From Alphaproteobacteria bacterium (GTDB lineage: Bacteria; Pseudomonadota; Alphaproteobacteria; MPNO01; UBA830), in contig OZ251539.1 of NCBI GenBank assembly GCA_965243135.1, forward strand, positions 2,656,001-2,720,000: a stretch of 64,000 nucleotides of DNA, written 5' to 3'. Positions 6,254 to 64,000 of this stretch are shown piece after piece (within the stretch, counting starts at the first letter, position 1; each line of letters opens with the position of its first letter). The position numbers were made by a program, and so were the translations under genes. Below the pieces are notes generated by a model. That model worked only from the letters and a program-made list of their open reading frames with translations, was not told the DNA's origin and ran no database searches.

Positions 6254-6421
6254 ATGGCCAAGGCGAACACCATCCTCGTGAAGCTCGTGAGCAGCGCCGA
6301 CACGGGATACTTCTACGTTGCGAAGAAAAACGCGAGAACCCAAACGGAAAAACTGGAGTTCCGCAAATACGATCCGGTCGCCCGCAAGCACGTGATCTTC
6401 AAGGAATCCAAGATCAAATAG
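6254..6421 (+). CDS. rpmG: 50S ribosomal protein L33 (Cys-free form); not in ORF track
   Basis: [55 protein letters not shown], 55 aa. Confidence 0.97.
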
Positions 6422-9260: not shown

Positions 9261-9399
9261 GTAGAGTCGAGGACTGGCGCGTTAGTTTTAGGGTCCGGTG
9301 GATGTTCCGTCGCTTTCGCTCCGGGCCTCAGTCCGGCTCCCTTGACCACGTTTCCAGTCCCCGCTCGTCAAACCGGACGTGCGGATTTCCCGCGCTTCG

Positions 9400-10222
9400 G
9401 TCGAGATCATGCCTTCGCCCACGGAAAGCTCTTCGTTCGCGGTGTAAGGCGGGTAAGACCTATTTCGTATAGGTATTTGTCTGGAAAGCGCACATACTTT
9501 CCTTTACGCACCTTGTGCTTGCGACAGAGCCATTGGCGCAGCCGACGGGTTGCGTGTCGATCGACGGCGGCATAAGCGGGACTAACTTGCCCCAGTGCGA
9601 AATAGTTTCCCCGTTATTACCCTGTTGAGGCGTTTTACCATCTCGTCCGGTTCGAGTTGTCCGTTCTTTCGCGCCGTCATTTCACTGTTGGCTTATGCTC
9701 TGGACGCTTGCCGGGTTTGGGCGCGTTCCAATGTAGGATCGTCCCGTGTTCCGTCGGTAGTTGCGTCCAATTCGGTACCCTAGGTATTCTAGTGGTTTCT
9801 CGGGTACCTGTATGCCTTCTCCGCGTTTATCGGCAGTTTCAGCCTTTCCATGAGTGCTTCGACTGCCGCCAGCATCTTGCTGGCCGGCGCTTTGCCGAGC
9901 ACTACGCTGTCCAGTTGACGATCTTCGCGCAGAAGTTTCGAGCGTAGCCCAGTACCTTCCAGCCCAGAATGAAACGGCGCATGGTTGCTGAGTAATGGGG
10001 AGATCGGCGCTCCTTGCGGAGTGCCTTTCCTTTCCCTGCGCGCCCGGTTCGTGCGGCGTTTGCCGCCTTTGCCGTCGTCCTCTTCCACTGCCATTTCCAG
10101 CCATGCCTTGACCCAGCCCAGCATTCGTCCATCGCTTACGCGACGGGCGACGGACTTCATCAGTTCCGCATGAGGGATTTGTCCGAAGTAGTCGGACAGG
10201 TCCGCGTCCACTACCTCGTGGT
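9400..10222 (-). pseudogene. Group II intron RT/maturase, 3' part (frameshifted, YADD lost)
   Basis: VVDADLSDYFGQIPH, GTPQGAPISPLLSN, then frameshifts; the sequence reads KIVN-(W/L)DSVV where YADD is expected; downstream end approximate. Confidence 0.88.
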
Positions 10223-11871
10223 CAGAAATTCCCGCTAAGGTGGCCGCCCTTTGCGAAAGGCGCGTCGAGATAGCGTCGTTACCGAGGGACCAGCCGCCGC
10301 GACGCACCTTCCCCGCTTCGGCTTGGTGCCGACTTAGCCTTGACCATCCTGTTTCCCCTGAAAAACTTGCTTTAGCACATTCGGTCACGGTGCCAGGTCA
10401 GGAGGTGTCGTAGGGAATTCCCTCTGCTTTCCGGTATCCAAACGCGATCATTCGGTAGAGTGTTTCCCAGTCCTTCAAGAAGTATTCGAGAAACAATCCC
10501 CGCGCCTTTTCCCAGAAGTAAATGGGCCGCTTGGCCTTCGTTTGCGCCTGTTGGAACAGTTTGCAACATCGCTGTTGAATCTGGTCAATCAGGAACGCCA
10601 GCATCATCAGGAACGCAAAGACCGTCGACAGATTCTTGTTACCGTGACCGAAGTTGTGCTCAAAGCAGTAGCCTTGGTTCTTCAGGGTGTTGAAAGTTTC
10701 GTTCTCGATCTTCCAGCGCGCCCGCCCGGTGCGCATCAACTCCATCAGGTTCCCTTCGTCAATTGGCAGATCCGTGACCCAGGAGAAACGTTGTTTCTTG
10801 CCGTTTGGGAGCTTCTCCCAGTATTCGAGAAAGTTCACTTTGAGGTCGAAGTGCGTATCGTTCAGAGGCACTCCGTTAAGATACCGGAATTCGTGCCGTA
10901 TGTTGTCACCGTCCGTGAACTCCCGGCGCTCCACGGACGGCGCGTTGTTGACCCACTCGAACAGGAACTTGTGGTCGCCGGGCTTCGCCCCCAGTATGAA
11001 ACGCATGTCTAACTCCTTGAGAAGATTGGCATGCGGTCCGTTCGAGGCCAGCCCATCTTCCAACACAACCAGCTTCAGGTGCGGGTGTTCGCGACGCACA
11101 TCTTTCAGAAGCCGTTTCGCTGCGTTGCGTTCGCAATCGTTCTTTTTTGCGCCGTCTTCCTTCAGGATCGGTTCCGGTGCAAACGGAAAAACCTCCTTTT
11201 GTTCCGGATGCACCAGAACGGCTCCCAACATCTGGTGGTAGTAGGTAATCGTACCGTCGCGGTGGTGTTTCTCGCAGCAATTTTTACAGTGCACCTTGTC
11301 CGACGAGAAGTATCCCGTTCCATCGATCGAAAGAGCGTAATGCCCGTTCAGACAAGTGTATTCTTCCAATCCCTTGCCTCGTTGCAAAACCTGGAACATC
11401 TTCGTGAAACAACGCCGCAATTGCCGCGGACAGACTTCGTCAAGCCGTTCGCGCATCGCAGTGTCCGACGGCACGCGCTTGACGCCGTATAAGGTCGCGA
11501 GGTTGTGCCGAACCACTTCGTCGGCGTGCGCGGCCTCGTCGAATTGCAGAAGCGACGCATACTTCATACCGAACACCGCTAGACCCGACATCAGACAGTC
11601 CGTCTGGTTCAGCCCCCTGCTCGCGATCGGATCTTCGATACGGTCGAAACAAGCTCGCACTTCCTTCAGCAATCCCGGAGCGCTGAGCGTCTTGCGCATG
11701 CCTGGCATTCTGGCCATTTTGGTTACAATCCCGCCTCGCCTTCGGACCACTTTCCAGAGAAAAATGCTCCGCTCGAAGGCAAATAGCCCCGAATCACCTC
11801 GAAAAGTCCACGAAAGACTTTTTTCCGGCCCCATATTTTTCAAGGGTTTCGAGCCTTAGCGGGAATTGCTG
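10223..11871 (-). mobile_element. Insertion sequence, 1649 bp (ISNCY-like DDE element)
   Basis: 18-bp TIRs CAG(A/C)AATTCCCGCTAAGG (17/18 match); 9-bp TSD CCTCGTGGT at 10214-10222 and 11872-11880; family assignment tentative. Confidence 0.93.
10398..11717 (-). CDS. DDE transposase (intact)
   Basis: SIDGTGYF, EDGL, GRARWKIENETFNTLKNQGY. Confidence 0.9.
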   Translation of the reverse strand: MARMPGMRKTLSAPGLLKEVRACFDRIEDPIASRGLNQTDCLMSGLAVFGMKYASLLQFDEAAHADEVVRHNLATLYGVKRVPSDTAMRERLDEVCPRQLRRCFTKMFQVLQRGKGLEEYTCLNGHYALSIDGTGYFSSDKVHCKNCCEKHHRDGTITYYHQMLGAVLVHPEQKEVFPFAPEPILKEDGAKKNDCERNAAKRLLKDVRREHPHLKLVVLEDGLASNGPHANLLKELDMRFILGAKPGDHKFLFEWVNNAPSVERREFTDGDNIRHEFRYLNGVPLNDTHFDLKVNFLEYWEKLPNGKKQRFSWVTDLPIDEGNLMELMRTGRARWKIENETFNTLKNQGYCFEHNFGHGNKNLSTVFAFLMMLAFLIDQIQQRCCKLFQQAQTKAKRPIYFWEKARGLFLEYFLKDWETLYRMIAFGYRKAEGIPYDTS

Positions 11872-12355
11872 CCTCGTGGTGGCCTTGTCTCAGCAACTGG
11901 TGCACCCGATTGACCGCGTCAAGTGCGCCTCTTTCCGGTCTGTAGGCATACTGCTCCGGTTGCAGGTCGGCTTCGAAGATCGGCGACAATATGAGCATCG
12001 CCGCCGTCTGTGCCACCCTGTCCCGTATGCAGGGGATGCCCAGGGGCCGAAATTTTCCGCGCTGTTTCTTTGGGACCTGCCGTACCGCGGTCGGTCGGTA
12101 GGTTCCTTCTTTCAGGTCCCGCGCCAGTTCCTCAAGCCATTGGTCCCTTCCTTGCGCTTCCGCTATCGTCGTTCCGTCCGTCCCGGCAGTCCCTCCGTTT
12201 CGACGGACGTCTTGCCAGGCTGTGAACAGCACTTCGTAGCTCCATACCTTGTCGCATAGCGAGTAGAACCGGTAGCTTGGGGATTCCTTCGCTTGTAACG
12301 TTATCTGGAGTCTCCGAACTTTCTCCGAGGCTGCTAGGCTTTTGCCAGTCCTCAT
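11872..12355 (-). pseudogene. Group II intron RT/maturase, 5' part
   Basis: RFYSLCDKV, GTAGTDG, FRPLGIPCIRDRVAQ, IFEADL..QYAYRP; cut by the IS within HHE-VVDAD. Confidence 0.9.
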
Positions 12356-12831
12356 GTCCTTTCTTCCTTCCAACGCTTCTCTCGACCCAAGGCCCCTTTC
12401 CTCCACCGGCATTACCCGGCTTCTCCGGTACTACGGGCCTCTCCGCCACCCGCCGGCCTGCCCCTCGCGGGGTTCCGGTTGACTCGTGCGCGTCACCGAC
12501 AGGGCTTCCCGTGTTGCTGCTTCCTTCATCTTTCATGCGTGCCGACACCCCGGCGGAAACGGTCGGTGCTTTTGTCGTTCTCTTCCCGACCGTCGGCGGC
12601 TTTCCCCTAACCTCAGGAGGGTCAGCTCCCGCATTGACCGTTTCGAGGCCTGCTCAATGTTCACTGCTCGTTTCGGCCCGCATGTTCGCTGAGCGGCCTT
12701 CGCCGCCCTTTCCCAGAGTGCTTCAGCCTACATCGTTACCTCCGTAAACCGCCCTGGCTGCTACCAACCGGAACGACAGTTGTTGGGTGGGATTCGCACC
12801 CACCAGAAGAAAGCGCCTTTCCACGGCACAC

Positions 12832-13812
12832 TGAGGTAGCCGGTCTGGAACAGAAGCGCCTCGATCGAAACATTGTCCACGTCGACGGACGAAAGCAGGC
12901 TCTCGCTGCCGGTCATGCCGTCCAGATCAGGGGTAGGCAGGTCGCGGCGCGTCAGCGTCTCGACCAGGAAGGTCGGCGTGCCGCTCTGAAACCAGTACGG
13001 GCGGAACTCGCGCCGCCGAAACAGCAGCAGCAGGCCGAACGGATTGTAGACCCTCTCCGGTCCGCGCCAGTTGTAGCCGTTGTACCAGCGGCGGATTTCG
13101 TCCCGGTCCAGGCCCTCGAGTTCCGGGGCGAAGACCGCATCCAGTTCCGCGTCCGTGTAGCCGCAGATGTCCGAGAACTCCGGCTCCAGCGTGACGTCGA
13201 TCAGGTTGTTCAGGCCCGAGAACAGGCCCGCCAACTTGCTCACCCCCGTCAGGAAAACGAAACGGAGATGCCTGTCGCAGGCCACCCCGTACAGGCTGCG
13301 CAGGAAGTCGCGGTTGGCCAGCGCCAGTTCCCGGTCGCCGAGCGCGTCCAGAATCGGCTTGTCGTACTCGTCCACCAGCACGACCGCCCGCCGCCCGGTG
13401 CGCTCGTGCAGGGCCTCGATCAATTCGTGGAAACGGACCGCCGTCCCGGCGGGGCCCGGTTCGAGGCCGGCGCGCCTCTCCGTCGCCGCCAGTTGCCTTT
13501 CCACGGTTCCCCGGACCCCGTCCGGGGTGTCGAAACGACCCACGCCGCTGAAATCCAGCCGCACCGGCGCGCCGACCAGTCCCACTTGCCGTGCACGGCG
13601 AGGCCCCGGAACGGCTCCTCGCTTCCCTCGAACAATTCTTGCAGCGTGTCCACCAGCAAGCTCTTGCCGAACCGGCGCGGACGCGACAGGAAATAGTAAT
13701 CGCCCCCTTCGACGAGGCGGCGCACATGGTCCGTCTTGTCGACGTAGTAGCAGTCCCTCGTCCGGATTTTCCGGAGGGAAGTCAAGCCGGTCGGAAGCAT
13801 GCGTCTCGTCAT
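12832..13812 (-). pseudogene. 5' exon of AAA-ATPase/PD-(D/E)XK gene (copy 1), frameshifted
   Basis: YYVDKT, SRPRRFGKS (Walker A), LVDEYDKP (Walker B); 7-nt deletion near 13565. Confidence 0.9.
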
Positions 13813-13828
13813 CCACGCAGAATAGTCC

Positions 13829-13862
13829 GCCGTGGCGGAGTCGTCGCCGTGGCGGAGTCGTC
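13829..13862. repeat. Perfect 17-bp tandem duplication in the promoter spacer of copy 1
   Basis: GCCGTGGCGGAGTCGTC twice, between TTGACG (13864-13859) and TATTCT (13824-13819). Confidence 0.85.
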
Positions 13863-13959
13863 AAAGAAGAGGCAACCGTTCCAGGGCGAGAACGGGCGGT
13901 CGTTGCCAAGCCGCTGCCAGCGACGAGAGCAGCGGCAGCGGCGCGCGAGGCGGCGGCGT

Positions 13960-14290
13960 TACGGACGGCGGAAGGCGGCAGCGATGCGGGAGTTACCGGT
14001 CAGAAGACCTCCGTGGTCAGCTCTCGAACGGCTTGGCGTCGGCGAGCCTGCGGCAGGAGATCGTCCGCGCAACCGAACGAGCGCGGCGTTGCGGGCGAGG
14101 GTACGGGCACCGCTGCCGACATGATTGCGGCGACGATCCTCGTCATAAATCATGTCGCGAACACGCCCGTTTTCCCGGTGACGGCGAGCGGAAATCTCGG
14201 CCGGTCGTCCGCGGCGGAACGGAGTCGCTCCGCAAGCGATCTCCAGAGTCGTCCCGACGACCTTTCCCAATTTTCCGACGTATGCGTGCG
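13960..14290 (-). pseudogene. ISAs1-family transposase 3' relic
   Basis: TTLEIACGAT...ARRHRENGRVRDMIYDEDRRR...ARTLARNAAL resembles ISAs1 RxHWxIENxLHxVRDxxxxEDxxR; homologous to 28800-29130; bounds approximate. Confidence 0.6.
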
Positions 14291-42561: not shown

Positions 42562-42638
42562 TGGCGCACCCGACAGGATTCGAACCTGTGACCTCTGGCT
42601 TCGGAGGCCAGCGCTCTATCCGGCTGAGCTACGGGTGC
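42562..42638 (-). tRNA. tRNA-Arg(CCG)
   Basis: 77 nt GCACCCGTAGCTCAG...CTGGC-CTCCGAA-GCCAG...GTTCGAATC...GGGTGCGCCA; encoded CCA. Confidence 0.97.
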
Positions 42639-50956: not shown

Positions 50957-53272
50957 TTACGGCCGGGCGGCGCGGATCGCCTGCCACACTCTGAGGGGCG
51001 TAAGCGGCATTTCCGCGTCGGTCACGCCGAGCCCCGAGAGCGCGTCGACGACGGCGTTGACCACCGCCGCGGTCGCGCCGACCGTGCCGGATTCTCCGCC
51101 GCCCTTCACGCCGAGCGGATTGGTCCGGCAAGCCGCCGCGAAATCCCGCGTCTCGATCATCGGCAGGTCGTCGGCCCGCGGCATGCAGTAGTCCATGAAC
51201 GAGCCGGCGAGGAGCTGGCCTTCGGAATCGTAGGTCACGTCCTCCATGAGGGCCTGGCCGACTCCCTGCGCCACTCCGCCGTGAACCTGGCCGGCGAGCA
51301 GCAGAGGGTTGATCACCTCGCCGGAATCGTTGACCGCCACGTGGCGAATCAGTTCGACGGCGCCGGTGTCGGGGTCGATTTCCACTTCCGCGAAGTGGGT
51401 TCCGTTGGGCCAGTTGGGACCGCTCTCCGGCGTCCAGGCACCTTCCGCCGAAAGTCCGACGCCGAGCTCCGCCGGCCAGCCCATGGGCATGAAGGTCTGG
51501 GCCGCGAGTTCGCAGATGTGAATCGACCGGTCGGTGCCGGCGACCTTGAGCGCGCCTTCTTCGAACTCGATGTCTTCGGCGGCCGCCTCCAGCAGGTGGG
51601 CGGCGATCTTCTTCGCTTTTTCGACGATCGCGTCGGCCGCGGCCCGCAAGGCGGAACCGCCGATCGACATGGAGCGGGATCCGTAGGTGCCGCGTCCGAA
51701 GGTCACCGCGTCGGTGTCGCCCTGGACCAGGCGGACGCGGTCGAACGGGACGCCCAGCCATTCATGGATCATTTGCGCGTAGGAGGTCCGGTGGCCCTGC
51801 CCGTGGCTGAAGGTGCCGGCCGCGACGGTCACGCCGCCGGTCTCGTCGAAGCGGATCTCCATCCGGTCGTTGAAGGGCGCCGCGAAATCGATGAAGGAGC
51901 AGACGCCGAGGCCGCGAAGCCGGCCCCGCGCGGCGGCCTCCTCCCTGCGGGCGGCGAAGCCGGCCGCGTCCGCGACGCCGGCGGCGTGGGCGGCGAGCGC
52001 CGGAAAATCGCCCGAGTCGATCACGGTCGGCACCGGCGTCGCGTACGGCATCTTCTCCGGGGAGACGTAATTGCGCCTGCGCAGCTCGATCGGATCCGCG
52101 CCGAGCTCGTCGGCCGCCATGTCGAGCAGGCGTTCCACGACGTAGATCGCTTCGGGCCGCCCTGCGCCCCGATAGGGGCCGGTCCAGGCCGTATGGCTGA
52201 ACACCGCGCGGATGTGGACGTGCATCGCCTGAAAATCGTAGACGTTGGGATAGACCATGGCGCCGATGCAGGCGGACACCGGCGCCGATGCGGACAGATA
52301 CGCGCCGAGGCCGTAATCGGCGCGCACCCGCAGCCCGAGAATCCGCCCGTCGCCGTCGAGCGCCAGTTCGCCCAGACAGTCGGCGTCGCGTCCGTGGGTG
52401 TCGCTGACCAGCGATTCGGACCGGTCGGCCGTCCACTTGACCGGCCGCCGCAGCCGTCTTGCCGCCCAGGCGCACAGGGCGTCTTCGGGGAAGACGTTGT
52501 TCTTCATGCCGAAGCCGCCTCCCACGTCGGGGCAGACGATGCGAAACGAACCCGCCGGGACGCCGAAGATTTCCGCGAAGACGGGGCGGTGCTGGTGGGG
52601 TCCCTGGCTGGACATCCAGATCGTGAAGCTGTCCTGTCCGGGATGATATTCGGCGAGGGTCGCCCGCGGTTCCATCGCGTTGGCGGAGATGCGGTTGTTG
52701 CGCAGGCGCGCCTTGACGACGTGCCGGGCGGAAGCGAACGCGGCTTCCGCGGCGTCGCGGTCGCCGAGCTCCATGTCGAACCACAGATTGCCGGGCGCGT
52801 CGTCCCACACGAGGGGCGCGCCTTCGACCGCAGCGTCGCGCGTGGAGCCTGCCGCGGGCAGAATTTCGTAGTCGACTTCGATCGCCTCCGCGGCGTTCCG
52901 CGCCTGCGCCAGAGTCTCGGCGACGACGAAGGCGACCGGATCGCCCACGCACCGCACCCGGTCCCGGGCGAGGATCGGATGCGCCGGCGTGTAGGTCGCG
53001 GGGCCGCCGAAAGCCATCGGCGGCACGTGGCAACCGATGTCGCGGAGACCGTCGGCCTCGACGTCCCGGCCCGCGAGAACCGCGAGCGCGCCGGGCATGC
53101 GCGCGGCGGCGTCGGTGTCGACTCCGTTCACGCGGGCATGGGAATGGGGCGATCGCAAGACGTAGCCCACGGCCTGCCGCGGCAGGTCGATGTCGTCGAC
53201 GTAGCGGCCGCCGCCTCTCAGAAGCCGCGGATCCTCCGTTCTCGGAACGGGCTGGCCGATGCCGAATTTCAT
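50957..53272 (-). CDS. Xanthine dehydrogenase-family molybdopterin large subunit (form II CoxL-like)
   Basis: REDPRLL-like N-terminus, VGGGFG, YRGAGRPE, GQGHRT, GQVHGG, KGGGE. Confidence 0.9.
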   Translation of the reverse strand: MKFGIGQPVPRTEDPRLLRGGGRYVDDIDLPRQAVGYVLRSPHSHARVNGVDTDAAARMPGALAVLAGRDVEADGLRDIGCHVPPMAFGGPATYTPAHPILARDRVRCVGDPVAFVVAETLAQARNAAEAIEVDYEILPAAGSTRDAAVEGAPLVWDDAPGNLWFDMELGDRDAAEAAFASARHVVKARLRNNRISANAMEPRATLAEYHPGQDSFTIWMSSQGPHQHRPVFAEIFGVPAGSFRIVCPDVGGGFGMKNNVFPEDALCAWAARRLRRPVKWTADRSESLVSDTHGRDADCLGELALDGDGRILGLRVRADYGLGAYLSASAPVSACIGAMVYPNVYDFQAMHVHIRAVFSHTAWTGPYRGAGRPEAIYVVERLLDMAADELGADPIELRRRNYVSPEKMPYATPVPTVIDSGDFPALAAHAAGVADAAGFAARREEAAARGRLRGLGVCSFIDFAAPFNDRMEIRFDETGGVTVAAGTFSHGQGHRTSYAQMIHEWLGVPFDRVRLVQGDTDAVTFGRGTYGSRSMSIGGSALRAAADAIVEKAKKIAAHLLEAAAEDIEFEEGALKVAGTDRSIHICELAAQTFMPMGWPAELGVGLSAEGAWTPESGPNWPNGTHFAEVEIDPDTGAVELIRHVAVNDSGEVINPLLLAGQVHGGVAQGVGQALMEDVTYDSEGQLLAGSFMDYCMPRADDLPMIETRDFAAACRTNPLGVKGGGESGTVGATAAVVNAVVDALSGLGVTDAEMPLTPLRVWQAIRAARP

Positions 53273-53428
53273 GGACGCCTCCCCGGCGGGCAGTATTGCG
53301 GTTTCCGGATATTCGTTCATATATGCGGGCGTGTCGAGGGCGAGGCCGGCCGCGGAAACCCGGCGGCGCGCGGGGCGCCGGCTCCGTTCGCTGGACTTCG
53401 CCCGCCGCCCCGCCATATTGCGCACGCC

Positions 53429-54265
53429 ATGGAACTGCCTTTCAGAAAGATGCACGGGCTCGGAAACGACTTCGTGGTGATCGACGCGCGTCCGGGGGAG
53501 CCGTGGGCCGGATTCGCCGTCGATTCCGCCTGGGCGGCCGCCGTCGCCGATCGCCATACCGGCGTCGGATGCGATCAGCTGGTCGCGATGGAAGAATCAC
53601 CCGGCGGGCGCGAAGACGTCTTCATGCGAATCTGGAACGCCGACGGCGGCGAGGCGGGCGCCTGCGGCAACGCGGCCCGCTGCGTCGGGGCGCTGCTGAT
53701 GGACGAGCGGGGCGCCGACGCCGTCCGCATCCGGACCGTCGCCGGCGCGCTGTCGGTCGCGCGCGCCGCCCGCGGCATGGTCGCGGTCGACATGGGCGCG
53801 CCGCGATTCTCGTGGGACCGGATACCGCTGAGCGGGCGGGCCGACACCCTGCACCTGAACCTCGGGCGCGGCCCGCTTTCCGATCCGGCGGCGGCCAGCA
53901 TGGGCAATCCGCACGCGACCTTCTTCGTCGACGAGGTCGAAGCGATTCCGCTCGCCGAGATCGGGCCGGCGCTCGAGATCGATCCTCTTTTTCCCGAAGG
54001 CGCCAACATCGGCGTCGCCCGCATCGACGACGCCGACCGGATGCGCCTGCGGGTCTGGGAGCGCGGCGCCGGCGTCACGCTCGCTTGCGGCACGGCGGCC
54101 TGCGCCGCGGTCGCGAACGCCTGGCGCCGCGGCCTCGCCGGACGCGGCGTGACCGTCGCCATGGACGGAGGATCGCTGCGGATCGACTGGCGGGAGGACG
54201 ACCGGATCCTCATGACGGGGCCGGCGGAGACGAGCTTCCACGGACTGCTCGAGACGGGATCCTGA
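53429..54265 (+). CDS. dapF: Diaminopimelate epimerase
   Basis: KMHGLGNDF, ACGNAARC, MGNPH, WERGAG.TLACGT. Confidence 0.96.
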   Translation: MELPFRKMHGLGNDFVVIDARPGEPWAGFAVDSAWAAAVADRHTGVGCDQLVAMEESPGGREDVFMRIWNADGGEAGACGNAARCVGALLMDERGADAVRIRTVAGALSVARAARGMVAVDMGAPRFSWDRIPLSGRADTLHLNLGRGPLSDPAAASMGNPHATFFVDEVEAIPLAEIGPALEIDPLFPEGANIGVARIDDADRMRLRVWERGAGVTLACGTAACAAVANAWRRGLAGRGVTVAMDGGSLRIDWREDDRILMTGPAETSFHGLLETGS

Positions 54266-54267
54266 TC

Positions 54268-55518
54268 GTGGACGCTCCCCGGATTCTCACTTTCGGATGC
54301 CGGCTGAACAGCTTCGAATCCGAGGTCATGCGCGAGCAGGCGGCGGCCGCCGGCGTGTCGAACGCGATTATCGTCAACGGCTGCGCGGTCACCGCCGAGG
54401 CCGAGCGGCAGGTGCGGCAGGCGATCCGCCGCGCCAGGCGGCGGCATCCGGAGGCGCGCATCGTCGTCACCGGTTGCGGCGCTCAGATCGCTCCCGAAAA
54501 ATACGCCGCGATGGAGGAGGTCGACCGGGTGGCGGGCAACGCCGAGAAGGTCGATGCCGATTTCTGGGCGGGGTTGGCGGAGGCGCCGCGCGTGTCGGTC
54601 GGCGACATCATGGCCGCGCGCGAGACGGCGTCCCACATGGTCGCCGGCTTCGAAGGCAGGACGCGCGCTTTCGTCGAGATACAGCAGGGGTGCGATCACC
54701 GGTGCACTTTCTGCGTCATACCGTTCGGGCGCGGCGCGAGCCGCTCGTCGGCGCCGGGCGCGATCGTCGAGCAGGCGCGCCGCCTCGTCGCCGGAGGGTG
54801 CAGGGAAATCGTGCTGACCGGGGTCGACATAACGGATTACGGAAAGGACCTGCCGGGGGCGCCGACGCTGGGCGGGCTGGTTCGCCGGCTGCTGAAGCTG
54901 GTTCCCGGCCTGCCCCGGCTCAGGCTGAGCTCGATCGACCCGGCGGAGGCCGACGAGGACCTGTACGGCGCGATCGCTTCCGAACCCAGGTTGATGCCGC
55001 ATCTTCACCTGAGCGCGCAGTCGGGCGACGACACGATCCTGAAGCGCATGAAGCGTCGGCATCTCCGCGCGGACATCGAAAACTTCGTCGCGCGCGCGCG
55101 GCGCCTCCGTCCCGACTCGGCGTTCGGCGCCGATCTCATCGCGGGCTTTCCCACCGAGACCGAGGAAGCCTTTCGCAACACGCTGTCCCTGGTGGAGGAT
55201 TGCGAACTGACATGGCTGCACGTCTTTCCCTATTCCGAGCGTTCCGGGACGCCGGCGGCTCGAATGCCTCAGGTGCCGGGCGAGGCGAGGAAGGCGCGGG
55301 CGGCTCTTCTGCGGGCGGCCGGGGCGCGGCAGGCGCGGCGGTTTCTCGACGCACGCGTCGGCGGAACGGCCGACGTGCTGGTCGAGCGCGAGGGAGAAGG
55401 ACGCTCGCCCCAGTTCGCCGTCGTGCGGCTCGAGGACGGGGCGGCGGCCGGCGTCATCGTTTCGGCGCGCATGCTGCGGCGCGACGGCGAAACCCTGTTG
55501 GCCCGGAAGGCGGCATGA
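54268..55518 (+). CDS. mtaB: tRNA t6A37 methylthiotransferase
   Basis: FGCRLN, CAVT, GCDHRCTFC (radical SAM); dapF-mtaB-ftsY synteny. Confidence 0.92.
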   Translation: MDAPRILTFGCRLNSFESEVMREQAAAAGVSNAIIVNGCAVTAEAERQVRQAIRRARRRHPEARIVVTGCGAQIAPEKYAAMEEVDRVAGNAEKVDADFWAGLAEAPRVSVGDIMAARETASHMVAGFEGRTRAFVEIQQGCDHRCTFCVIPFGRGASRSSAPGAIVEQARRLVAGGCREIVLTGVDITDYGKDLPGAPTLGGLVRRLLKLVPGLPRLRLSSIDPAEADEDLYGAIASEPRLMPHLHLSAQSGDDTILKRMKRRHLRADIENFVARARRLRPDSAFGADLIAGFPTETEEAFRNTLSLVEDCELTWLHVFPYSERSGTPAARMPQVPGEARKARAALLRAAGARQARRFLDARVGGTADVLVEREGEGRSPQFAVVRLEDGAAAGVIVSARMLRRDGETLLARKAA

Positions 55519-56450
55519 GCGACCGGCAGAAGGGAAGATGGTTCTCCCGTCTCCGCGACGGGTTGCGGCGCTCGTCGTCCCGGCTGTCCGACGGCATCGG
55601 CGCCATTTTCGCCGGGGGCAGGCTCGACGCCTCGACGCTGGAGGAACTGGAAGAGTTGTTGATCGCATCCGATCTCGGCGTCGCGACCGCGGCCAGGCTT
55701 TCGGCGTCGTTGGCGAAAACGCGCTTCGACGGGGAGGTTTCCGCGGACGAGGTCCGCGAGGCGATGGCGGACGAAATCGCCCGGATCCTCGAGCCGGTCG
55801 CCGTGCCGCTGGCGGCCGACCCCGCTCATCGGCCGCACGTCGTTCTCGTCGCGGGGGTGAACGGTTCGGGCAAGACGACCACCATCGGCAAGCTCGGGAA
55901 GCGTTTCGCGGAAGAGGGCAAGTCGGTCATGTTCGCGGCCGGCGACACGTTCCGGGCAGCCGCGATCGAACAGCTCCGGATCTGGGGCGAGCGGGCGGGC
56001 GCCCCGGTCGTCGCGAGAGATCCCGGGTCCGACGCGGCGAGTCTCGCCTTCGAGGCGGTGGACGCCGCCCGCGAGGCGGGGAGCGACGTATTGATCGTCG
56101 ATACCGCGGGCCGGCTGCAGAACCGCGACGACCTTATGCAGCAGTTGCGGAAGATGGTGCGCGTGATCCGGAAGCAGGACGCGACGGCGCCCCACGATTG
56201 TCTGCTGGTGCTCGACGCCACGGTCGGACAGAACGCGCATTCGCAGGTGGAGACCTTCCGCGCTATGTGCGATCTAACGGGTCTCGTGGTGACCAAGCTG
56301 GACGGTTCCGCACGGGGGGGCGCGCTCGTGGCTTTGGCGGAGAAGTTCGGCCTGCCCGTCCACGCCGTCGGGGTGGGCGAAGGGGAGGACGATCTCCGGC
56401 CGTTCGAGGCCCGGGCGTTCGCGCGCAGCCTGATGGGAATCGCGGACTGA
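55515..56450 (+). CDS. ftsY: Signal recognition particle receptor
   Basis: GVNGSGKTTT, DTFRAAA, DTAGR, TKLDG. Confidence 0.96.
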   Translation: MSDRQKGRWFSRLRDGLRRSSSRLSDGIGAIFAGGRLDASTLEELEELLIASDLGVATAARLSASLAKTRFDGEVSADEVREAMADEIARILEPVAVPLAADPAHRPHVVLVAGVNGSGKTTTIGKLGKRFAEEGKSVMFAAGDTFRAAAIEQLRIWGERAGAPVVARDPGSDAASLAFEAVDAAREAGSDVLIVDTAGRLQNRDDLMQQLRKMVRVIRKQDATAPHDCLLVLDATVGQNAHSQVETFRAMCDLTGLVVTKLDGSARGGALVALAEKFGLPVHAVGVGEGEDDLRPFEARAFARSLMGIAD

Positions 56451-57605: not shown

Positions 57606-58205
57606 ATGCATCAGGCAGATCTCTCCACCGCAATGTCGCAAGCCAATAGGTCCGAGACGCGCGATAGTTTCGACTCGGAAATCGCGCATGAGGATATCGT
57701 TCGGCGTGCGGTGGCAAGGTTCGATCTCGAGTTCAGGCGCGGGATCGACGCTACCCAGGGAACCAGCACGCACCAGGCCAACGCGAGTTCCCGATCGCCT
57801 GTTACCGACCGTAGGCAGGTCGACCTTTCCCGAATCGTGGATTTGCCGAGATTGCCGGTTCGGCGAATGCCCGCGACGCGGTTTCATGCCCTGCAGGAGT
57901 GGGAGGGCTATGTCGTCGAGATCGGCGGCAAGGAATTCACGGCGCGGCTGACCGACATCACGGCCGGAGCGTCGTATGAGCAGGAAGAAGCGATTATCCC
58001 CCTTTCGGAGGTCTCGGACGGCGATGCCGAGAAGATGCGCGAGGGGAGCGTCTTCCGCTGGGTGATCGGTTACGAACGCTCTGCCTCCGGAACCAAGAAG
58101 CGCGTTTCCCAGATCGTGTTTCGCGACCTTCCGGCGATCACCGAGGCCGACCTGCGAGCCGGCAAAGCGTGGGCACGGGAGACGATGCGGTCGTTCGGGT
58201 TGTGA
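57606..58205 (+). CDS. Hypothetical protein with a beta-barrel-like C-terminal domain
   Basis: LQEWEGYVVEI..FTARL..GSVFRWVIGY; GTGA overlap with the next gene. Confidence 0.7.
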   Translation: MHQADLSTAMSQANRSETRDSFDSEIAHEDIVRRAVARFDLEFRRGIDATQGTSTHQANASSRSPVTDRRQVDLSRIVDLPRLPVRRMPATRFHALQEWEGYVVEIGGKEFTARLTDITAGASYEQEEAIIPLSEVSDGDAEKMREGSVFRWVIGYERSASGTKKRVSQIVFRDLPAITEADLRAGKAWARETMRSFGL

Positions 58206-59277
58206 CGGCGGCGGAAACGCTTCCGGGACATGACGAGATCGAACTTGCGCTTTTCGGCCCGGGGTACGGCGAGAGCGTCGTCATGCATATCGGCGACGGT
58301 GAATGGGTGGTCGTCGACTCCCGCATCGACAAGGACGGCAGACCGAACGCTCTGACCTATCTGGAGAACCTCGGCCTCGATCCGGCCGAAGTTGTCGTTC
58401 TGATCGTGGCGACTCACTGGCACGACGACCATATCCGCGGGATGGAGCGCGTGGTCGAGGCACAGGGCCCGCTTTTGTTGCTCGGCTGCGCTAGGTCTCC
58501 AGGAATTTCTTTCCATTGTCGGCGCTCTCGAAGACCGCAGCTTTTCCGGTTTCGGTTCCGGGGTTCGGGAACTTCACGGCGTCTTCACCCGACTTCGCGG
58601 AGCGGCGTCGAGGCCGACGTTCGCCCTCGCCAACCAACGCGTTCCCATGCGCAACGAGTGCGAGATCTGGTCCCTCTCGCCCGACAGCGGAGTCTTCCAG
58701 AATTTCCTGAAATCTATCGACGGTCTCGTGCCCGGCACCGGTCAAACCAAGGCTCGACTTCCCGGCCCGACGCCCAACGAGGCGGCGGTCGCGCTCTGGG
58801 TCGAGGTCCAAGACATCGCGGTATTGCTTGGGGCGGACTTGGAGAAGTCGGGCTGGACAGTCATTTTGCGAAGCAAGGAGCGTCCTGTCGGCAAGGCGTC
58901 GGCGTTCAAGGTCCCGCATCACGGATCCGCGAACGCCGACGAACGGGAGGTATGGACGCGAATGTTGGAGTCGGCTCCCTTCGCCGTGCTTGCGCCTTGG
59001 CGCAGAGGCGGCCATGCCCTTCCGGGCGAGAACGACGCGCAGCGCATTCTTTCGCGCACAGGGAATGCCTACGCGACCGCGAAAGACAGCCGACGTGCGC
59101 CCAGGCGCCGGGAAAGAATGGTCGAGCGGAGCATCCGGGAGTCCGGCCTCCAACTTCGAGAGCTGGCGATGTCCCCCGGCTGGCTTAGGTTACGGCGGCC
59201 GCTCCACCCAAAGGCGCAATGGTACAGTCGAGAAGTTTGGGACCGCGTGCCATCTCAAGGACTTCGCTGCGCCGTAG
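58202..59277 (+). pseudogene. MBL-fold (ComEC/Rec2-like) metallohydrolase, frameshifted
   Basis: FGPGYGES, ATHWHDDH, then NEAA, LLGADLE and KVPHHGS in another frame; shifts near 58460-58490, 58630 and 59225. Confidence 0.8.
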
Positions 59278-59655
59278 CCGACCGCGACGGCGGGCGTCCG
59301 ACAAAGCCCGCGCAAGTCGGCCCGATCAAGCGCGGCCGCCGATCGTCGAACCCGAGTCCGAAAGCGCGAGGAGACTTCATTTCCGGCGACCATCGCACTT
59401 CCGAAGGAGCGCGGCGGCCGTTGACGCCCTCGCGGGCGGGTGCTGTCCTCGCAGCTGTCTACGGACGCGGAGGTTTCCGTTCGCGCTCTGGCTTCATGGG
59501 GAGCCCGCGGGTAATCAACGGAGAAGCGAAGTCGCGAAACAAGACCGGCAAAATCATCGGCCGCGCCCACGATTGCGGCGATTGCAAACGGTTTGCGCTT
59601 TCGCCGATATAGGGCGGCTCGACGCCGCTGTCATCACGAACAACGGAAACGCGAA

Positions 59656-60699
59656 ATGACCGAATCCAGACGATCTTTTCTCGGCAGCGGCGTTGCCGCG
59701 GCGCTGGGAGCCTCCGCGTTGGCCGCGTCGGCGGCGCATGGCCGCCCGACGATTCGCTGGCGCCTTCAGACCTATGCGAATCCGGCCCTTGCGGAACATG
59801 TCGTCAAGCCCGCGGTGGACGCTTTCAACCGGGCCGCCAACGGCGAAATGGAGATCGAGCTCTTTTTCGCCGACCAGCTCGCGCCCGCAAGCGAGCTTTT
59901 CGAGGCGTTGCGGAACGGCACGGTCGACATCGCGCAATCCGACGACGATTCGATCGCCGCTCCGACCGACGTATCCGTGTTCGGAGGCTATTTTCCGCTT
60001 GCCCTGCGATACAGCCTCGACGTGCCCGTCCTGTTCAGCCGCTACGGGCTCGGCGAAATCTGGGATGCCGCCTACGCTGAAGTCGGCGGCGTCAAATGGC
60101 TGTCGGCGGGCGCGTGGGACCCGTGCCATTTCGCGACAAGGAAACCGATCCGGCGGCTGGCCGATCTGGAGGGCAAACGCATTTTCACCTTTCCGACCGC
60201 CGGACGCTTTCTCCGGAGATTCGGGGTAGTCCCCGTCACGCTGCCATGGGACGAAGTGGGATCGGCGATGCGGAACGGGGCGCTCGACGGCATCGCGTGG
60301 TCGGGAATCACGGAGAACTACACGGTCGGCTGGGCGGACGTGACCGAATACTTCCTCACGAACAACATCTCGGGGGCCTGGATCGGCCATTTTTTCGCGA
60401 ACGAGGATCGCTGGAACGCCCTTCCTGAGCACCTCAAAACGTTGTGGCGTCTGGCGATGGATTCGTCCCATTATTACCGTCAGCACTGGTACTGGGGCGG
60501 CGAGGCCGATCTCAGGACTCGGGGATCCAGAATGCAACTCACCTCCATTCCGGCCGAGGAATGGGCCACGGTCGAAGCCGAGGCCGACCGGTTCTGGGAC
60601 GAGATTGCGGCAGTCAGTCCGCGTGCGAGGCAAGTGGTCGAGATTTTCCGGCAATACAACGCCATCATGGCGAAAGCGGGCCAACCTTACCGCTGTTAG
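59656..60699 (+). CDS. TRAP solute-binding protein with Tat signal
   Basis: SRRSFL twin-arginine signal, WRLQTY, DLEGKRI, GALDG; no permeases adjacent. Confidence 0.88.
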   Translation: MTESRRSFLGSGVAAALGASALAASAAHGRPTIRWRLQTYANPALAEHVVKPAVDAFNRAANGEMEIELFFADQLAPASELFEALRNGTVDIAQSDDDSIAAPTDVSVFGGYFPLALRYSLDVPVLFSRYGLGEIWDAAYAEVGGVKWLSAGAWDPCHFATRKPIRRLADLEGKRIFTFPTAGRFLRRFGVVPVTLPWDEVGSAMRNGALDGIAWSGITENYTVGWADVTEYFLTNNISGAWIGHFFANEDRWNALPEHLKTLWRLAMDSSHYYRQHWYWGGEADLRTRGSRMQLTSIPAEEWATVEAEADRFWDEIAAVSPRARQVVEIFRQYNAIMAKAGQPYRC

Positions 60700-61145
60700 T
60701 TCGGCGGCTTTTTCCGCTCTTGTGCCGGCTCGCCGCGCTTCTGCCCGGCGCGCCGAGGAAAGGAGAAAACTGATCGTATGCGCCAACTCTTTGTCCGTCG
60801 CGCAGCCGACTTCGAGTCGGGGCTGCCCGCCTGCGAGGTTGGCGAGATCCTGCCGGCCCCTGCCGCCCGGCTGCGTTCTCCTTGCGGCGAATTGACTCGC
60901 CAGCCCCCCAACGGCGGAAACTGCCGGTCGTCTGCGTTGCGCTTCCGACCTCGTAGGGGGTATATGATCGCCAAGATTTTCGTAGACCTTTCCGGGAGCT
61001 TCGGTACTGTCTGGCTCGGGAAAATTTTCTCGCTTCGCGGCAGTTCGTCCATTGGCGATGACGCCTCCTCTGCGGCTACCCGCGAATGCTGTCCGTCTTG
61101 GCGGGAATTGACGTAATCTTGGCGCATGCGCTTGAGGAAGAGGCC

Positions 61146-64000
61146 ATGGAACCGCCTCCACGGGCAGTTTACGACGACCCTGCACGCCACTGGGACTTCT
61201 TGACCCGGCCCTCGGACGACGACTTCGAAGGTCAGCACTTCGACCGCAAGGAGGCTGGCCAAAGGACGAGCGAAGCTCGGAGACTCGAAAAGCAACTGAA
61301 ACGACTCCGGGATGGTATCGCCGAAACGGTTTCCGCCTTCGCCAACAGCAATGTCGAGGGCGGCCTCCTCGTGATCGGAATCGCTTCCAACGGCGCCGTC
61401 GAAGGCGTCAACCATCTGACGGAGCGGCAGAAGAACAGCCTCACCGACATTGGGAGCCTGCTCCACTTTCAGGCGGCCGAAGCGAAGCTTCACGTATGCA
61501 CGGACTCAGCTGGCCAAAGCAACGCCATCTGTCTGATCTATACCCCCTATGCGGACAGCGGCATCTGCGAAACGCCGGGATCTGCACCGAAAGCGTGGGA
61601 GCGACGCGGCCCCCAGAACGTGCCCGTTACGCTGGAGATGCGAGAGCGGCTCAGAGACAGGAAAAATCTTTCGAATTTCGAAAATGCGTTCTGTTGCCCC
61701 TATGACCCAACCGATCTCTCGAATGACGTTCTTGCGGAGTTCCGCAAGGTGTTTCTCCCGGAAGCGGTTAAGGACTTCTCGGACGAACGGCTGCTTTATG
61801 AGGCGGGGGCGCTGATCCGCAGGGATGGAGAATACTGGTTTACGAATGCCGGGCTTCTGTTCTTCGGATCGAATCCGCAACGGGTGCTTCCTGCATCGCA
61901 CGTCCGCTTGTTGCGATTCGGAGCGATCTCTGGGGATTTCGCTAAGCGCGGGCTGCCTACATTCGACCAGAAGTTTACGGGCCCGGTAACGAAGCAGATC
62001 CGCGAAGCGAGGACGTTCTTCAGAGAATCCGCGTTCTTCAAGCGATATCAAAAGCGTCGGGAGGCAGGCGGCTTCGCCGAGGAACCCGAGTTTCCGCCCA
62101 CCGTCATCGACGAGGCCATAGTGAACGCCGTGGCGCATCGGGACTATCGGACCGCCATACCGATCGAATGCGAAGCCTACGCGGATGCCTTCGTCGTCAA
62201 GAACCCAGGCCGGATGACGCAACGTGACGCCGATCTTCCATCCCGTTTCTCGTTGGCGGATGTCGTGCTCGACTCGATGCCTAGGAATCCCAAGATTTTG
62301 GAGTGGTTGAAGCTGATGCGGGATCCCCGCGGCGCAGCGTACGTACAAGCCATCAGCGAAGGCACGAAGCAGATGGTCACGGCCATGGAAGATCTCGGAT
62401 TGCCCGCTCCTTCATTCCGCCTGGCCTCGAACGAGACATTGATCAAGATCGAAAGCAAAGCTGAAGAACGCGAAGCCGCTATCCTGGCCGCGAACGAAGA
62501 CAAGCCAACGGAATTCTGCAATCTGTTTCTCCTGAGGTTTCGACAGCAAGGAAATCCGGTCGGGTACGATGCCTTCGGCTCGCGGTATGGAGAGATCGTC
62601 AAGACGCTGCGCGACGCTCTCAAGGGAAACGGATGGCATATCGACAGGGATGGATTCAGCAGGATATTGGCGCATAGAAAAGGCATGGAGCTTGAAGCGC
62701 CGGAAGACGTGAGATCCATTTTGCGTTTCTATCCAGCGTACGAATTCCAGATTCGAGAGTATCATCGGCGCTATTATTTGTGCATCGACTATAAATGCTT
62801 GGCTCTCAACGTAAGGAAGCTCTCCGTTGCGAGACAACGACTCGCCCGAACCGATCTGGAAGGCCGACGTTGCATCGCGGAGAAGCACGGATGGAGGGAA
62901 GGCCGTCTGTCTGAATTCGGCGACGAATTCGCGCAAGTCCGGTTCTTTGATACCGAAACGGAAGAGTCCGTTTCCGTCGATAAAGTTATTCCCAATGTCT
63001 CCAATGCGATGTTGGAAACCATGCTGAAGAAGGAAGGATCCTCGTTCGATTTCTCTGCTGCGCTCCGAAAGCACAGTTTGGTCACGAGGTCGAACGCCGC
63101 GAAGGAACGGGCGGAGAGAACGCTGACTATGGCGAATCATATTGCGGATACGGTGTTTCCATTGCGACATTGCGACCTCGACATAGACGTCGTTTCCGAT
63201 CCGGTTCGACTTTCTGAACGAAAAGGATCTTCGAAAGGCGAAATGTTCGTTCGACGCTTGCCGGAGCCGGAGGCGGAGTTTCGGCAACGCGAGCTGTCGC
63301 GAGATATCCGGACCGGAATCACGAAGTACGGTGCATATGACGATCAACCGCAGCGGATCGAGCTGATTCCCGTTTGCACGAATTCGATGCGAAAGGGAAT
63401 GGAAAAATTGATCGGTCGCTTGGTAGGGGGACGGCATAGATACCGTGGATCCGAACGCACTTTTGCGGCGGAGTTCTCGTATTCGACGATCGTCTCCGTG
63501 GATCGCGTCGAAAATATCCGGGGAGAAATCGAACGTCTGCTGGACCGGCGGCCAAAAGGCCACGCCGACGCACGGTCCCTCTTTCTCGTTTACGCTCCGG
63601 AAGAGGGCTATTCACGCGATGACCATACGGCGCCATATTTCGCCAACAAGAGACTGTTGCTGGAAAGAGGCGCGCCCTGTCAGATGGTTGATACGCCGAC
63701 ACTTGAGAACGCCGATTGGAAGGACCTGAATCTGGCCTTGAACATCTGCGCCAAATGCGGCGTTCGACCCTGGGTCTTGCCCGATAGAATCCCGGAAGCG
63801 GATTTTTTCGTGGGACTGTCCTATACGCAATCCGAAGACGGTCGGCGAATCATGGGTTTTTCCAACGTATTCAACAGCTACGGCAGGTGGGAGTTCTATC
63901 GCGGAAATGCCTCGTATTTTGATTTCGAGGATCGAAGCGTTCGGCTTGCCGGTTTGATTGAATCAACGTTAGAAAGACTCGAATCCCGACTGTCTTCGAC
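61146..64000 (+). CDS. Schlafen/AlbA_2 + HATPase_c_4-like + long prokaryotic Argonaute fusion (3'-truncated by window; not in ORF track)
   Basis: Stop-free frame of 951 codons from ATG 61146 after GAGGAAGAGG; EGQHFDRK and SAFANS..GGLLVIGI; EAIVNAVAHRDY, NPG, PRNP; MID Y831-K835-Q846-K870, NLALNICAKCG.PW; PIWI start DFFVGLSY. Confidence 0.88.
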   Translation, partial: MEPPPRAVYDDPARHWDFLTRPSDDDFEGQHFDRKEAGQRTSEARRLEKQLKRLRDGIAETVSAFANSNVEGGLLVIGIASNGAVEGVNHLTERQKNSLTDIGSLLHFQAAEAKLHVCTDSAGQSNAICLIYTPYADSGICETPGSAPKAWERRGPQNVPVTLEMRERLRDRKNLSNFENAFCCPYDPTDLSNDVLAEFRKVFLPEAVKDFSDERLLYEAGALIRRDGEYWFTNAGLLFFGSNPQRVLPASHVRLLRFGAISGDFAKRGLPTFDQKFTGPVTKQIREARTFFRESAFFKRYQKRREAGGFAEEPEFPPTVIDEAIVNAVAHRDYRTAIPIECEAYADAFVVKNPGRMTQRDADLPSRFSLADVVLDSMPRNPKILEWLKLMRDPRGAAYVQAISEGTKQMVTAMEDLGLPAPSFRLASNETLIKIESKAEEREAAILAANEDKPTEFCNLFLLRFRQQGNPVGYDAFGSRYGEIVKTLRDALKGNGWHIDRDGFSRILAHRKGMELEAPEDVRSILRFYPAYEFQIREYHRRYYLCIDYKCLALNVRKLSVARQRLARTDLEGRRCIAEKHGWREGRLSEFGDEFAQVRFFDTETEESVSVDKVIPNVSNAMLETMLKKEGSSFDFSAALRKHSLVTRSNAAKERAERTLTMANHIADTVFPLRHCDLDIDVVSDPVRLSERKGSSKGEMFVRRLPEPEAEFRQRELSRDIRTGITKYGAYDDQPQRIELIPVCTNSMRKGMEKLIGRLVGGRHRYRGSERTFAAEFSYSTIVSVDRVENIRGEIERLLDRRPKGHADARSLFLVYAPEEGYSRDDHTAPYFANKRLLLERGAPCQMVDTPTLENADWKDLNLALNICAKCGVRPWVLPDRIPEADFFVGLSYTQSEDGRRIMGFSNVFNSYGRWEFYRGNASYFDFEDRSVRLAGLIESTLERLESRLSS

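Follow-up and report, generated by a model that had tools for sequence, protein, structure and literature searches.

A Schlafen-ATPase-Argonaute fusion gene in a high-GC bacterial genome: a probable single-chain anti-phage system of the SLFN-pAgo family

Introduction

The only functional study of a fusion between a Schlafen (SLFN) domain and a prokaryotic Argonaute (pAgo) found in the literature is that of Kuzmenko and colleagues (30 May 2026, bioRxiv 10.64898/2026.05.29.728809). In the part of it that was available, this preprint describes the SLFN-pAgos as a monophyletic group of long-B pAgos comprising 78 proteins of 1,071-1,187 residues, which carry an N-terminal AlbA_2 domain and a PF13749 GHKL ATPase, lack the PIWI tetrad and have no conserved partner gene. 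Here, a gene of this kind is described from an alphaproteobacterial genome, where it lies on the + strand at 61146..64000 of a 64,000-nucleotide stretch of DNA (G000:C1:2656001-2720000, hereafter the window) and runs on to position 64508, beyond the window end. Its product is a three-part protein that joins an SLFN/AlbA_2 domain, a GHKL ATPase and a long-B Argonaute core in a single chain, and the gene is likely to be an intact, functional SLFN-pAgo whose product acts as a single-chain anti-phage system in the manner of RzAgo (WP_028663822.1), the characterised family member from Runella zeae. As a kind of system it has already been described and characterised; the locus adds a well-supported, intact member from a high-GC (guanine plus cytosine) genome and from a clade distant from RzAgo.

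According to the same text, RzAgo uses small RNAs of ~21 nt with a 5'-A as guides and DNA as target, and its residue Y828 contacts the guide 5'-adenine, the 5'-A being read by Y828 and Y1086 together. With guide RNA the protein forms inactive helical filaments in which the Schlafen domains are held apart. The filaments are dissolved by target DNA, and ATP on the GHKL domain leads to a tetramer in which two Schlafen domains make up a two-lobed nuclease, the second lobe being supplied by the partner subunit. Guide-loaded RzAgo cleaves tRNA when ATP and complementary DNA are present, an activity abolished in the D32A variant, while ATP hydrolysis is abolished in E314A, and target recognition leads to abortive infection. 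Flavobacterium johnsoniae carrying wild-type RzAgo is defended against two large phages, a defence that is severely reduced by D32A and E314A and enhanced by D72A, a hyperactive variant. The preprint further reports that family members are often located near defence genes, distinguishes two Schlafen clades with domain exchange and discusses operons from Poribacteria. Outside this family, bacterial Schlafens (Perez Taboada et al. 2026) are presented as phage-activated tRNases in a review (PMC13434031), of which a part was available.

Domain architecture and family membership

The Schlafen/AlbA_2 nuclease domain occupies residues 28-160 (61227..61625, on the + strand, as are all gene features given below) and is recognised by Foldseek and by the Pfam model PF04326 (SLFN_AlbA_2; E 1.8e-8, 35.4 bits against a cut-off of 25.3). 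It contains the E28-x4-D33-x-K35 motif (E28-GQHF-D33-R34-K35) and the SAFAN box S63-N67 within the stretch S63AFANS68-NVE-G72GLLVIGI79, which is followed by A80-S81-N82-G83. The GHKL (Bergerat-fold) ATPase spans residues ~300-436 (62043..62453), with the N-box residues E323 and N327, and is assigned by residue conservation, by Foldseek and by Pfam PF13749 (HATPase_c_4; residues 340-431, E 1e-5, 25.8 bits for the part in the window and 25.4 bits for the full protein); its motifs read E323AIVNAVAHRDY334, K352NPG355 and P379RNPKI384. The remainder of the chain, residues 456-1120, is an Argonaute core made up of L1, PAZ, L2, MID and PIWI, as delimited by Foldseek on the full model, and the window holds its residues 456-951 (62511..64000), including C458NLFLL463 at its beginning. 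The MID pocket that binds the guide 5' end comprises Y831, K835, Q846 and K870 (63636..63755), and the start of PIWI lies at 63783..64000, with S892 (63819-63821) at the first catalytic-Asp position in phmmer alignments to AaAgo (1yvu) and CpAgo (9jh8). A first-pass annotation, made from the letters of the window alone, had already proposed the order Schlafen, ATPase, Argonaute and pointed to these motifs, to the beginning of the Argonaute and to Y831 and K835; the residues are all in place and the domain calls are borne out by Pfam, PADLOC, a PDB sequence search and Foldseek. A real defence fusion of mechanistic interest can thus be found by reading sequence alone.

Profile and structure comparisons agree on the Argonaute half. 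The PADLOC pAgo model PDLC02394 (1121 positions) scores 1275 bits over residues 3-946 of the 951-residue window part, and the PDB sequence search returns the Argonaute of Rhodobacter sphaeroides (RsAgo) first (E 1.3e-10, residues 820-1119), followed by the Aquifex and Clostridium perfringens proteins and short pAgos. An AlphaFold2 model of the full protein, built from a 60-sequence alignment (mean predicted local distance difference test score, pLDDT, 86.7; predicted template modelling score 0.72), has RsAgo entries 6d8p, 5awh, 6d8a and 6d9k at ranks 1-4 of the Foldseek PDB matches (E 1.5e-30 to 1.4e-29), with template modelling scores on the target of 0.64-0.65 and ~800 aligned columns for a protein of 752 residues; animal PIWI/AGO proteins and other pAgos rank below them. 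Since the NCBIfam RsAgo-type model gives only 34 bits against a cut-off of 700, the protein is not an equivalog of RsAgo. The MID and PIWI domains placed at about residues 740-951 in the first pass are thereby recovered by PADLOC, the PDB search and Foldseek, and only the Pfam Piwi model misses them, as it also misses RzAgo.

A separate model of residues 1-450 (pLDDT 90.4) matches DIP2311 (3lmm), a stand-alone AlbA_2-ATPase, at E 2.1e-18 over ~425 columns. It also matches mammalian Schlafens, from the N-domain of SLFN13 (5yd0, E 2.3e-6) through SLFN12, SLFN14 and SLFN11 to SLFN5, with E-values up to 7.9e-4, which together with the RsAgo matches answers the structural comparison proposed in the first-pass annotation. 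Weaker matches are those to the ATP-binding/catalytic domain of the histidine kinase VanS (E 0.012) and to pyruvate dehydrogenase kinases, including PDK4 (E 0.06-0.07). A predicted complex of two copies of residues 1-450 with ATP scored 0.00, a result that bears neither way on oligomerisation.

These fold matches also speak to the idea, which we regard as extremely unlikely, that the AlbA_2 domain is a nucleic-acid-binding module and not a nuclease, in which case the protein would act as a binder or silencer directed by its guide, with no collateral cleavage of RNA. Such a role is suggested by the term 'DNA-binding domains' that Ryazansky et al. 2018 (PMC6299218, in the part available) used for Schlafen/AlbA_2 fusions to a few long-B pAgos, by the names of relatives from public sources ('putative DNA binding domain-containing protein' or 'predicted HTH transcriptional regulator') and by weak fold matches of residues 1-450 to Alba proteins (E 0.1-0.2). 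Schlafen nucleases, however, are matched far more strongly than Alba, and E28, D33 and K35 are intact and nearly invariant; moreover, in the preprint's account, D32A alone was enough to abolish tRNA cleavage by RzAgo and to cut its defence severely.

As judged from sequence, the protein belongs almost certainly to the SLFN-pAgo family, five of six sequence-level features of which were found. The length of 1120 amino acids falls in the family range, and the chain contains AlbA_2 with its motif and SAFAN box, a GHKL domain with the catalytic Glu and the Mg-binding Asn, and an Argonaute core without the catalytic tetrad. Long-B characters are the PAZ domain, the inactive PIWI and RsAgo as best match both by sequence and by fold. 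The protein aligns with RzAgo colinearly over its full length (residues 3-1120 against 2-1111, 39% identity, 778 bits), and it stands in one tree with 61 homologous loci, RzAgo among them, a tree without an outgroup of other long-B pAgos.

Functional residues and the PIWI site

Conservation was counted in a 60-sequence MAFFT alignment that includes RzAgo, which was translated unchanged from its locus (L080, Runella zeae DSM 19591) in a numbering that reproduces D32, K46/K47, D72, E314, N318 and Y828. At the nuclease site, E28 is present in 58 of the 60 sequences, the other two having H (RzAgo, H27, and L083); D33 is D in 51 and E in nine (D32 in RzAgo); and K35 is found in 59 (K34 in RzAgo). 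Within the SAFAN box, which is conserved in RzAgo, F65 is invariant and S63 and N67 occur in 59/60 each. The ATPase residues E323 and N327 (RzAgo E314 and N318) and H331, R332 and G355 are each present in all 60, as are the four MID pocket residues Y831, K835, Q846 and K870 (RzAgo Y828, K832, Q843 and K867), and Y1095, the counterpart of RzAgo Y1086, is kept in at least 90% of the sequences. All residues tested by mutation in RzAgo except D72 are therefore kept in this protein (D33, E323/N327, Y831/K835).

The PIWI site, by contrast with AaAgo and CpAgo, is catalytically dead, because S892, S960 and R1091 occupy three catalytic positions. In the printed phmmer alignments these residues stand under the catalytic Asp of both proteins: 'FFVGLSY' at S892 lies under 'FVGIDIS' of AaAgo and 'FVGLDVG' of CpAgo, 'VFQYSARL' at S960 under 'VVHRDGRL' and 'VIHRAGFS', and 'KYARDI' at R1091 under 'HYSDKI' and 'GYADKI'. 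We take these AaAgo and CpAgo motifs to be the catalytic Asp motifs of PIWI. S960 and R1091 are located past the window end. Three positions could be aligned in this way, the fourth, the Glu finger, having given no reliable alignment. The substitutions are shared across the family, with S in 57/60 at position 892 and 55/60 at position 960, and G, K or R in 57/60 at position 1091.

Proposed mechanism and its main alternative

By analogy with RzAgo, the dead long-B Argonaute core would load short 5'-phosphorylated RNA guides, probably with a 5'-A, in its MID pocket, and a higher-order assembly would keep the guide-loaded protein inactive. Once the guide pairs with complementary DNA of an invader, the protein would be released from this assembly, and the nuclease would cut tRNA, stopping translation and aborting the infection. 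The architecture, the folds, the intact motifs, the dead PIWI site, family membership and the lone-cassette setting are shown for this protein itself. An RzAgo-like mode of action is likely, by an argument from 39% identity and conserved functional residues, and from these we infer the type of guide and target, the states as filament or tetramer, tRNA as the substrate and the defence phenotype. The idea advanced in the first-pass annotation, of a non-slicing Argonaute that switches on the fused Schlafen nuclease under ATPase gating and leads to translation arrest or abortive infection, gains support from what the available text of the preprint reports for this colinear relative, while its statement that no functional characterisation was known has been out of date since May 2026.

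Several observations weigh against this proposal. The identity to the sole characterised member of the family is just 39%, and RzAgo stands on the other side of the midpoint root of the tree. RzAgo D72 lies in a one-residue insertion that is present in two of the 60 sequences (RzAgo and L083) and has no counterpart in this protein, and the RzAgo basic patch K46/K47 reads R55/D56 here. Of the profile checks suggested in the first pass, AlbA_2 is above its cut-off, HATPase_c_4 falls marginally short (0.2-0.6 bits below the cut-off of 26) and Pfam Piwi (PF02171) matches neither the protein at E up to 1 nor, at E up to 0.01, any sequence of the whole genome, a miss that reflects the sensitivity limit of the model and is not evidence against a PIWI domain. 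A simple promoter scan of the leader found no sigma-70 consensus or promoter-like site, and among the scanned neighbours there is no convincing match to a defence family, only a weak one of PADLOC LmuA to frames of a metallo-beta-lactamase (MBL) fold.

The nuclease loop deserves separate attention. Opposite the RzAgo stretch with D72 the protein reads A80-S81-N82-G83, and the placement of D72 itself depends on the method, being opposite A80 in BLAST and in a gap in MAFFT. The first-pass annotation had cautioned that this stretch (GIASNG) lacks the usual acidic residue and that nuclease activity was not assured. The feature is real; as an argument against activity it does not hold, since an acidic residue at position 81 or 82 is found in only 20/60 sequences and RzAgo D72A is reported in the preprint to give stronger defence.

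The main alternative is that the machine is the same and its specificity or resting-state control is different, for instance with DNA guides, RNA targets, no guide-dependent filament or a looser restraint of the nuclease that would stem from the absent D72-bearing insertion. We consider it unlikely. It draws on the modest identity and the opposite sides of the midpoint root, on the hyperactivity reported for RzAgo D72A, on the finding that both H at the E28 position and the D72 insertion are confined to RzAgo and L083 among the 60 sequences, and on the loop of codons 80-86, which is the most variable spot between strain variants. Against it stand the conserved MID pocket residues and both 5'-A-reading tyrosines, the fact that RsAgo, the best structural relative, has also been solved with guide RNA and target DNA (according to the PDB entry titles), and the E-x4-(D/E)-x-K and SAFAN logos, which are family-wide according to the available text of the preprint.

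RzAgo may be atypical of its own family at the nuclease site, and the majority type might have a higher intrinsic nuclease activity, a suggestion that we regard as speculative and unlikely. This protein is among the 58 of 60 sequences that have E28 and no D72-bearing insertion, which makes D72 and H27 of RzAgo exceptional. If the suggestion is right, the majority type would lean more on guide-loaded sequestration or on another brake than RzAgo does, and the codons 80-86 loop could be a tuning knob or the target of a phage inhibitor. The protein could in any case serve as a second, more consensus-like test of how general the filament-to-tetramer switch is.

Comparison with related systems

RzAgo and the present protein share the order of SLFN, GHKL ATPase and Argonaute core, which in RzAgo lacks a canonical N domain, as well as similar lengths (1111 and 1120 amino acids), a dead PIWI, the conserved positions D33, E323, N327, Y831, K835 and Y1095, and the organisation as a single-gene system without a fixed partner. 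This protein, unlike RzAgo with its H27 and W33, carries the consensus E28 and R34; it also lacks the one-residue insertion bearing D72 and keeps a basic residue only at the first position of the K46/K47 patch. RzAgo, moreover, comes from a Bacteroidota isolate, whereas this gene lies in a high-GC genome and its closest SLFN-pAgos are from Gammaproteobacteria bins.

RsAgo (5awh, 6d8a, 6d8p) also has an inactive PIWI and a MID pocket of the same Y-K-Q-K type, but it has neither a Schlafen nor an ATPase module. It is ~100 residues longer than the 665-residue core described here, and the shorter core would fit a missing N domain, as in RzAgo.

The mammalian Schlafens (SLFN11/12/13/14/5) resemble this protein in the fold of their nuclease lobe and share with it the E-x4-(D/E)-x-K motif, the SAFAN box and, by analogy, an antiviral logic based on tRNA cleavage. 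They combine two lobes in one chain with a linker and a superfamily 1 helicase, whereas a single lobe is joined here to a GHKL ATPase and an Argonaute sensor, and only ~150-190 columns of their chains align in Foldseek; the mammalian-type architecture is not what is seen here, and the likeness in working would extend to the Schlafen nuclease lobe only. Closer to the N-terminal 450 residues of this protein are the stand-alone or otherwise fused Schlatpase proteins, including DIP2311/3lmm, and bacterial Schlafen defence proteins, in which, in the sources as far as available, the place of the Argonaute is taken by a helix-turn-helix, an Ig-like domain or some other sensor.

With short pAgo systems, SPARDA and the long-B pAgos that have partner effectors, the protein would share the principle, described in the available parts of the literature, that an inactive Argonaute senses the invader through its guide and sets off a toxic effector, and that oligomerisation controls this effector. 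Its effector differs in being fused in cis and in being a Schlafen RNase, not an NADase or a DNase. The role of the filament is also reported to be opposite, the off state in RzAgo and the on state in SPARDA.

Gene boundaries and assembly support

The open reading frame on the + strand is listed at 61086-63998 (971 amino acids, open at the 3' end of the window). Translation from 61146 to the window end gives 951 residues without a stop, and the frame closes 508 bases beyond, at the equivalent of window position 64508, to give the 1120-residue protein P0002. In the 20 kb locus L003, which crosses the window end and whose coordinates are window coordinates minus 56000, the gene occupies 5146-8508, an assignment that rests on translation, colinearity with RzAgo and the PADLOC model. 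The first pass had noted an uninterrupted frame of at least 951 codons; with the extension past the window, the C-terminus is reached and the genes downstream come into view, beginning with a haem-oxygenase-like gene. The ATG at 61146 is the likely start rather than 61086, judging from the sequence, because GAGGAAGAGG precedes it at a distance of a few bases, the aligned Met is also where the three closest homologues start, and DNA similarity to them sets in at 61117-61146. The intergenic leader (60700..61145, + strand), with this purine-rich ribosome-binding stretch before the ATG, presumably contains the gene's own promoter; the DctP gene ends with a terminator-like hairpin (L003 4690-4707, window 60690-60707).

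Contigs of four public runs from three studies cover the gene. That of run X1 is identical to the window sequence, and those of runs X4, X6 and X7 have only substitutions inside the frame, so that neither an indel nor a stop or frameshift separating the domains, which the first pass had named as a concern, occurs in contigs from the three studies. The sole indel, present in a single low-depth contig (a strain variant of run X4), is a 7-nt insertion behind window position 61125, 21 nt upstream of the ATG. At least 37 in-gene differences were counted (three more, outside the frame, being left out), and of the 37 listed, each scored singly, 22 are synonymous and 15 nonsynonymous. The gene is maintained and intact, as follows from the absence of indels in the contigs of three studies, from the 22 of 37 synonymous differences and from the stop-free translation, over the matched range, of 61 of 69 homologous loci.

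The changes in the low-depth strain variant of run X4 are clustered at codons 80, 82 and 86 (window 61383-61402), in the loop after the SAFAN strand. Among the runs that hold the gene at near identity (X4, X7-X9), several are labelled sponge metagenome. No RNA run among the public runs listed holds the gene, which is uninformative on expression.

Genomic context

The gene has a GC content of 0.558 against 0.663 for window positions 1-56000, in agreement with the lower-GC DNA remarked on in the first pass; over 61000-64000 the value is 0.53-0.59, and at 52000-56000 it is 0.69-0.73. In a search of 31 genomes, the window's own and 30 relatives (four of the same genus, 14 of the same family and 12 of the same order), a full-length copy was found only in the window's own genome and in none of the 30 relatives, five of which have partial matches only, within residues 41-432. 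The four same-genus genomes have no syntenic counterpart, and in each of them the flanks fall into three pieces at three separate places: the end of ftsY (L003 3-459), the haem-oxygenase-like gene (8764-9471) and a hydrolase/monooxygenase block (10222-14000). L003 3013-8763 has no DNA match in these four genomes.

The gene is a lone cassette and was most likely acquired horizontally, because it stands alone in a genome-specific segment of lower GC. Mobility is further indicated by the DNA similarity to the closest loci, which begins and ends at the gene in blastn, by the absence of a same-genus counterpart and by a tree that mixes phyla. A blastn comparison with the five closest loci found no conserved neighbours. 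Around the gene, only short matches of 63-90% and no convincing direct or inverted repeats were found, and no tRNA adjoins it, the nearest being a tRNA-Arg at window 42562-42638. There is no Rfam match in L003 1-10000. The GC of the gene is 3.5-13 points below that of its flanks in the window locus (L003) and in six of six other loci (L004, L005, L006, L007, L012 and L080), regardless of the GC of the host; in Runella (L080) the values are 0.349 for the gene and 0.433 for the flanks. The pattern suggests that the gene family is biased in its composition or has been transferred repeatedly in recent times.

Such a context raises the question whether the gene might have come in as a passenger on a horizontally acquired segment, silent or in decay, and contribute nothing to host defence, which is very unlikely. 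Pointing in that direction are the lack of a detected defence island among the scanned neighbours, the apparently frameshifted MBL-fold gene nearby and six homologous loci that are broken, two of them by insertion sequences. The 1120-codon frame of this gene is intact with all its motifs conserved, though, independent contigs contain no indel in it and synonymous changes predominate, and the stretch is kept at near identity in runs from three studies. These observations favour the reading of the gene as an intact and probably functional SLFN-pAgo.

The genome-specific segment extends over window 56460-64760 (L003 460-8760), between ftsY and the haem-oxygenase-like gene, and weak matches of 65-70% to L003 893-1284 and 1882-3012 occur elsewhere, in G002 and G004. 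The scanned neighbours are ftsY, unassigned open reading frames, the MBL-fold gene, DctP, the haem-oxygenase-like gene, two alpha/beta hydrolases, two luciferase-like monooxygenases and a sulfatase. MBL-fold models match both of two + strand frames that overlap, 58169-59188 and 58647-59612, and these frames also match the N- and C-terminal parts of PADLOC LmuA (E 0.007 and 7e-5, respectively). Window 58169-59612 has the appearance of a single MBL-fold gene interrupted by a frameshift, either real or an assembly error.

Eight more stretches of the window's own genome match the protein in part, over residues ~55-430 (G000:C1: 715697-716563, 4485531-4486067, 4912796-4913197, 3509346-3509753, 4682155-4683054, 1101972-1102430, 4034153-4034593 and 389087-389509), which are presumably stand-alone or differently fused Schlafen-ATPase genes.

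Distribution and phylogeny

A profile scan of the GTDB species-representative genomes, based on a 24-sequence alignment, gave 176 pattern matches, of which 143 encode a relative of the protein, and 80 loci were kept. A search of protein databases gave 609 matches at E up to 0.001 among 8000 scored candidates, and at least 119 further 90%-identity clusters are 52-83% identical to the query, 113 of these 119 covering 100% of it. The family thus appears to be far larger than the 78 proteins given in the available text of the preprint (bioRxiv 10.64898/2026.05.29.728809).

The stop-free count given above refers to 69 of the 80 loci, the 11 with a partial match having been left out. Of the other eight, two (L055 and L079) are the stand-alone Schlafen-ATPase genes described below, and two are broken by insertions of ~1.6 kb, L037 (8252-9862) by one with an rve-type integrase/transposase and L082 (9557-11165) by one with an IS110-family transposase; in L013, L057, L072 and L077 the gene is disrupted by frameshift or stop, or has lost the Schlafen domain by deletion.

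In a FastTree tree of 62 rows, rooted at the midpoint without an outgroup, the protein groups with two Gammaproteobacteria bins and a Longimicrobiales bin, in a 13-row set drawn from seven phyla. Many of the homologous loci come from Poribacteria and other bins of the sponge-metagenome kind. In two Poribacteria loci, L055 (8001-9224) and L079 (8001-9245), a stand-alone Schlafen-ATPase gene, 40% identical to residues 3-430 of the protein, lies directly upstream of a full-length SLFN-pAgo, which recalls the Poribacteria operons discussed in the preprint.

The cyanobacterial loci L044, L047, L051 and L058 have tblastn matches only from residue ~164 onward. L044 encodes a 1179-amino-acid frame with AlbA_2, HATPase_c_4 and Piwi matches in Pfam, and since this frame has an AlbA_2 domain and its tblastn match begins at ~164, its Schlafen domain is a divergent one of a different type, in keeping with the preprint's account of two Schlafen clades and of domain exchange.

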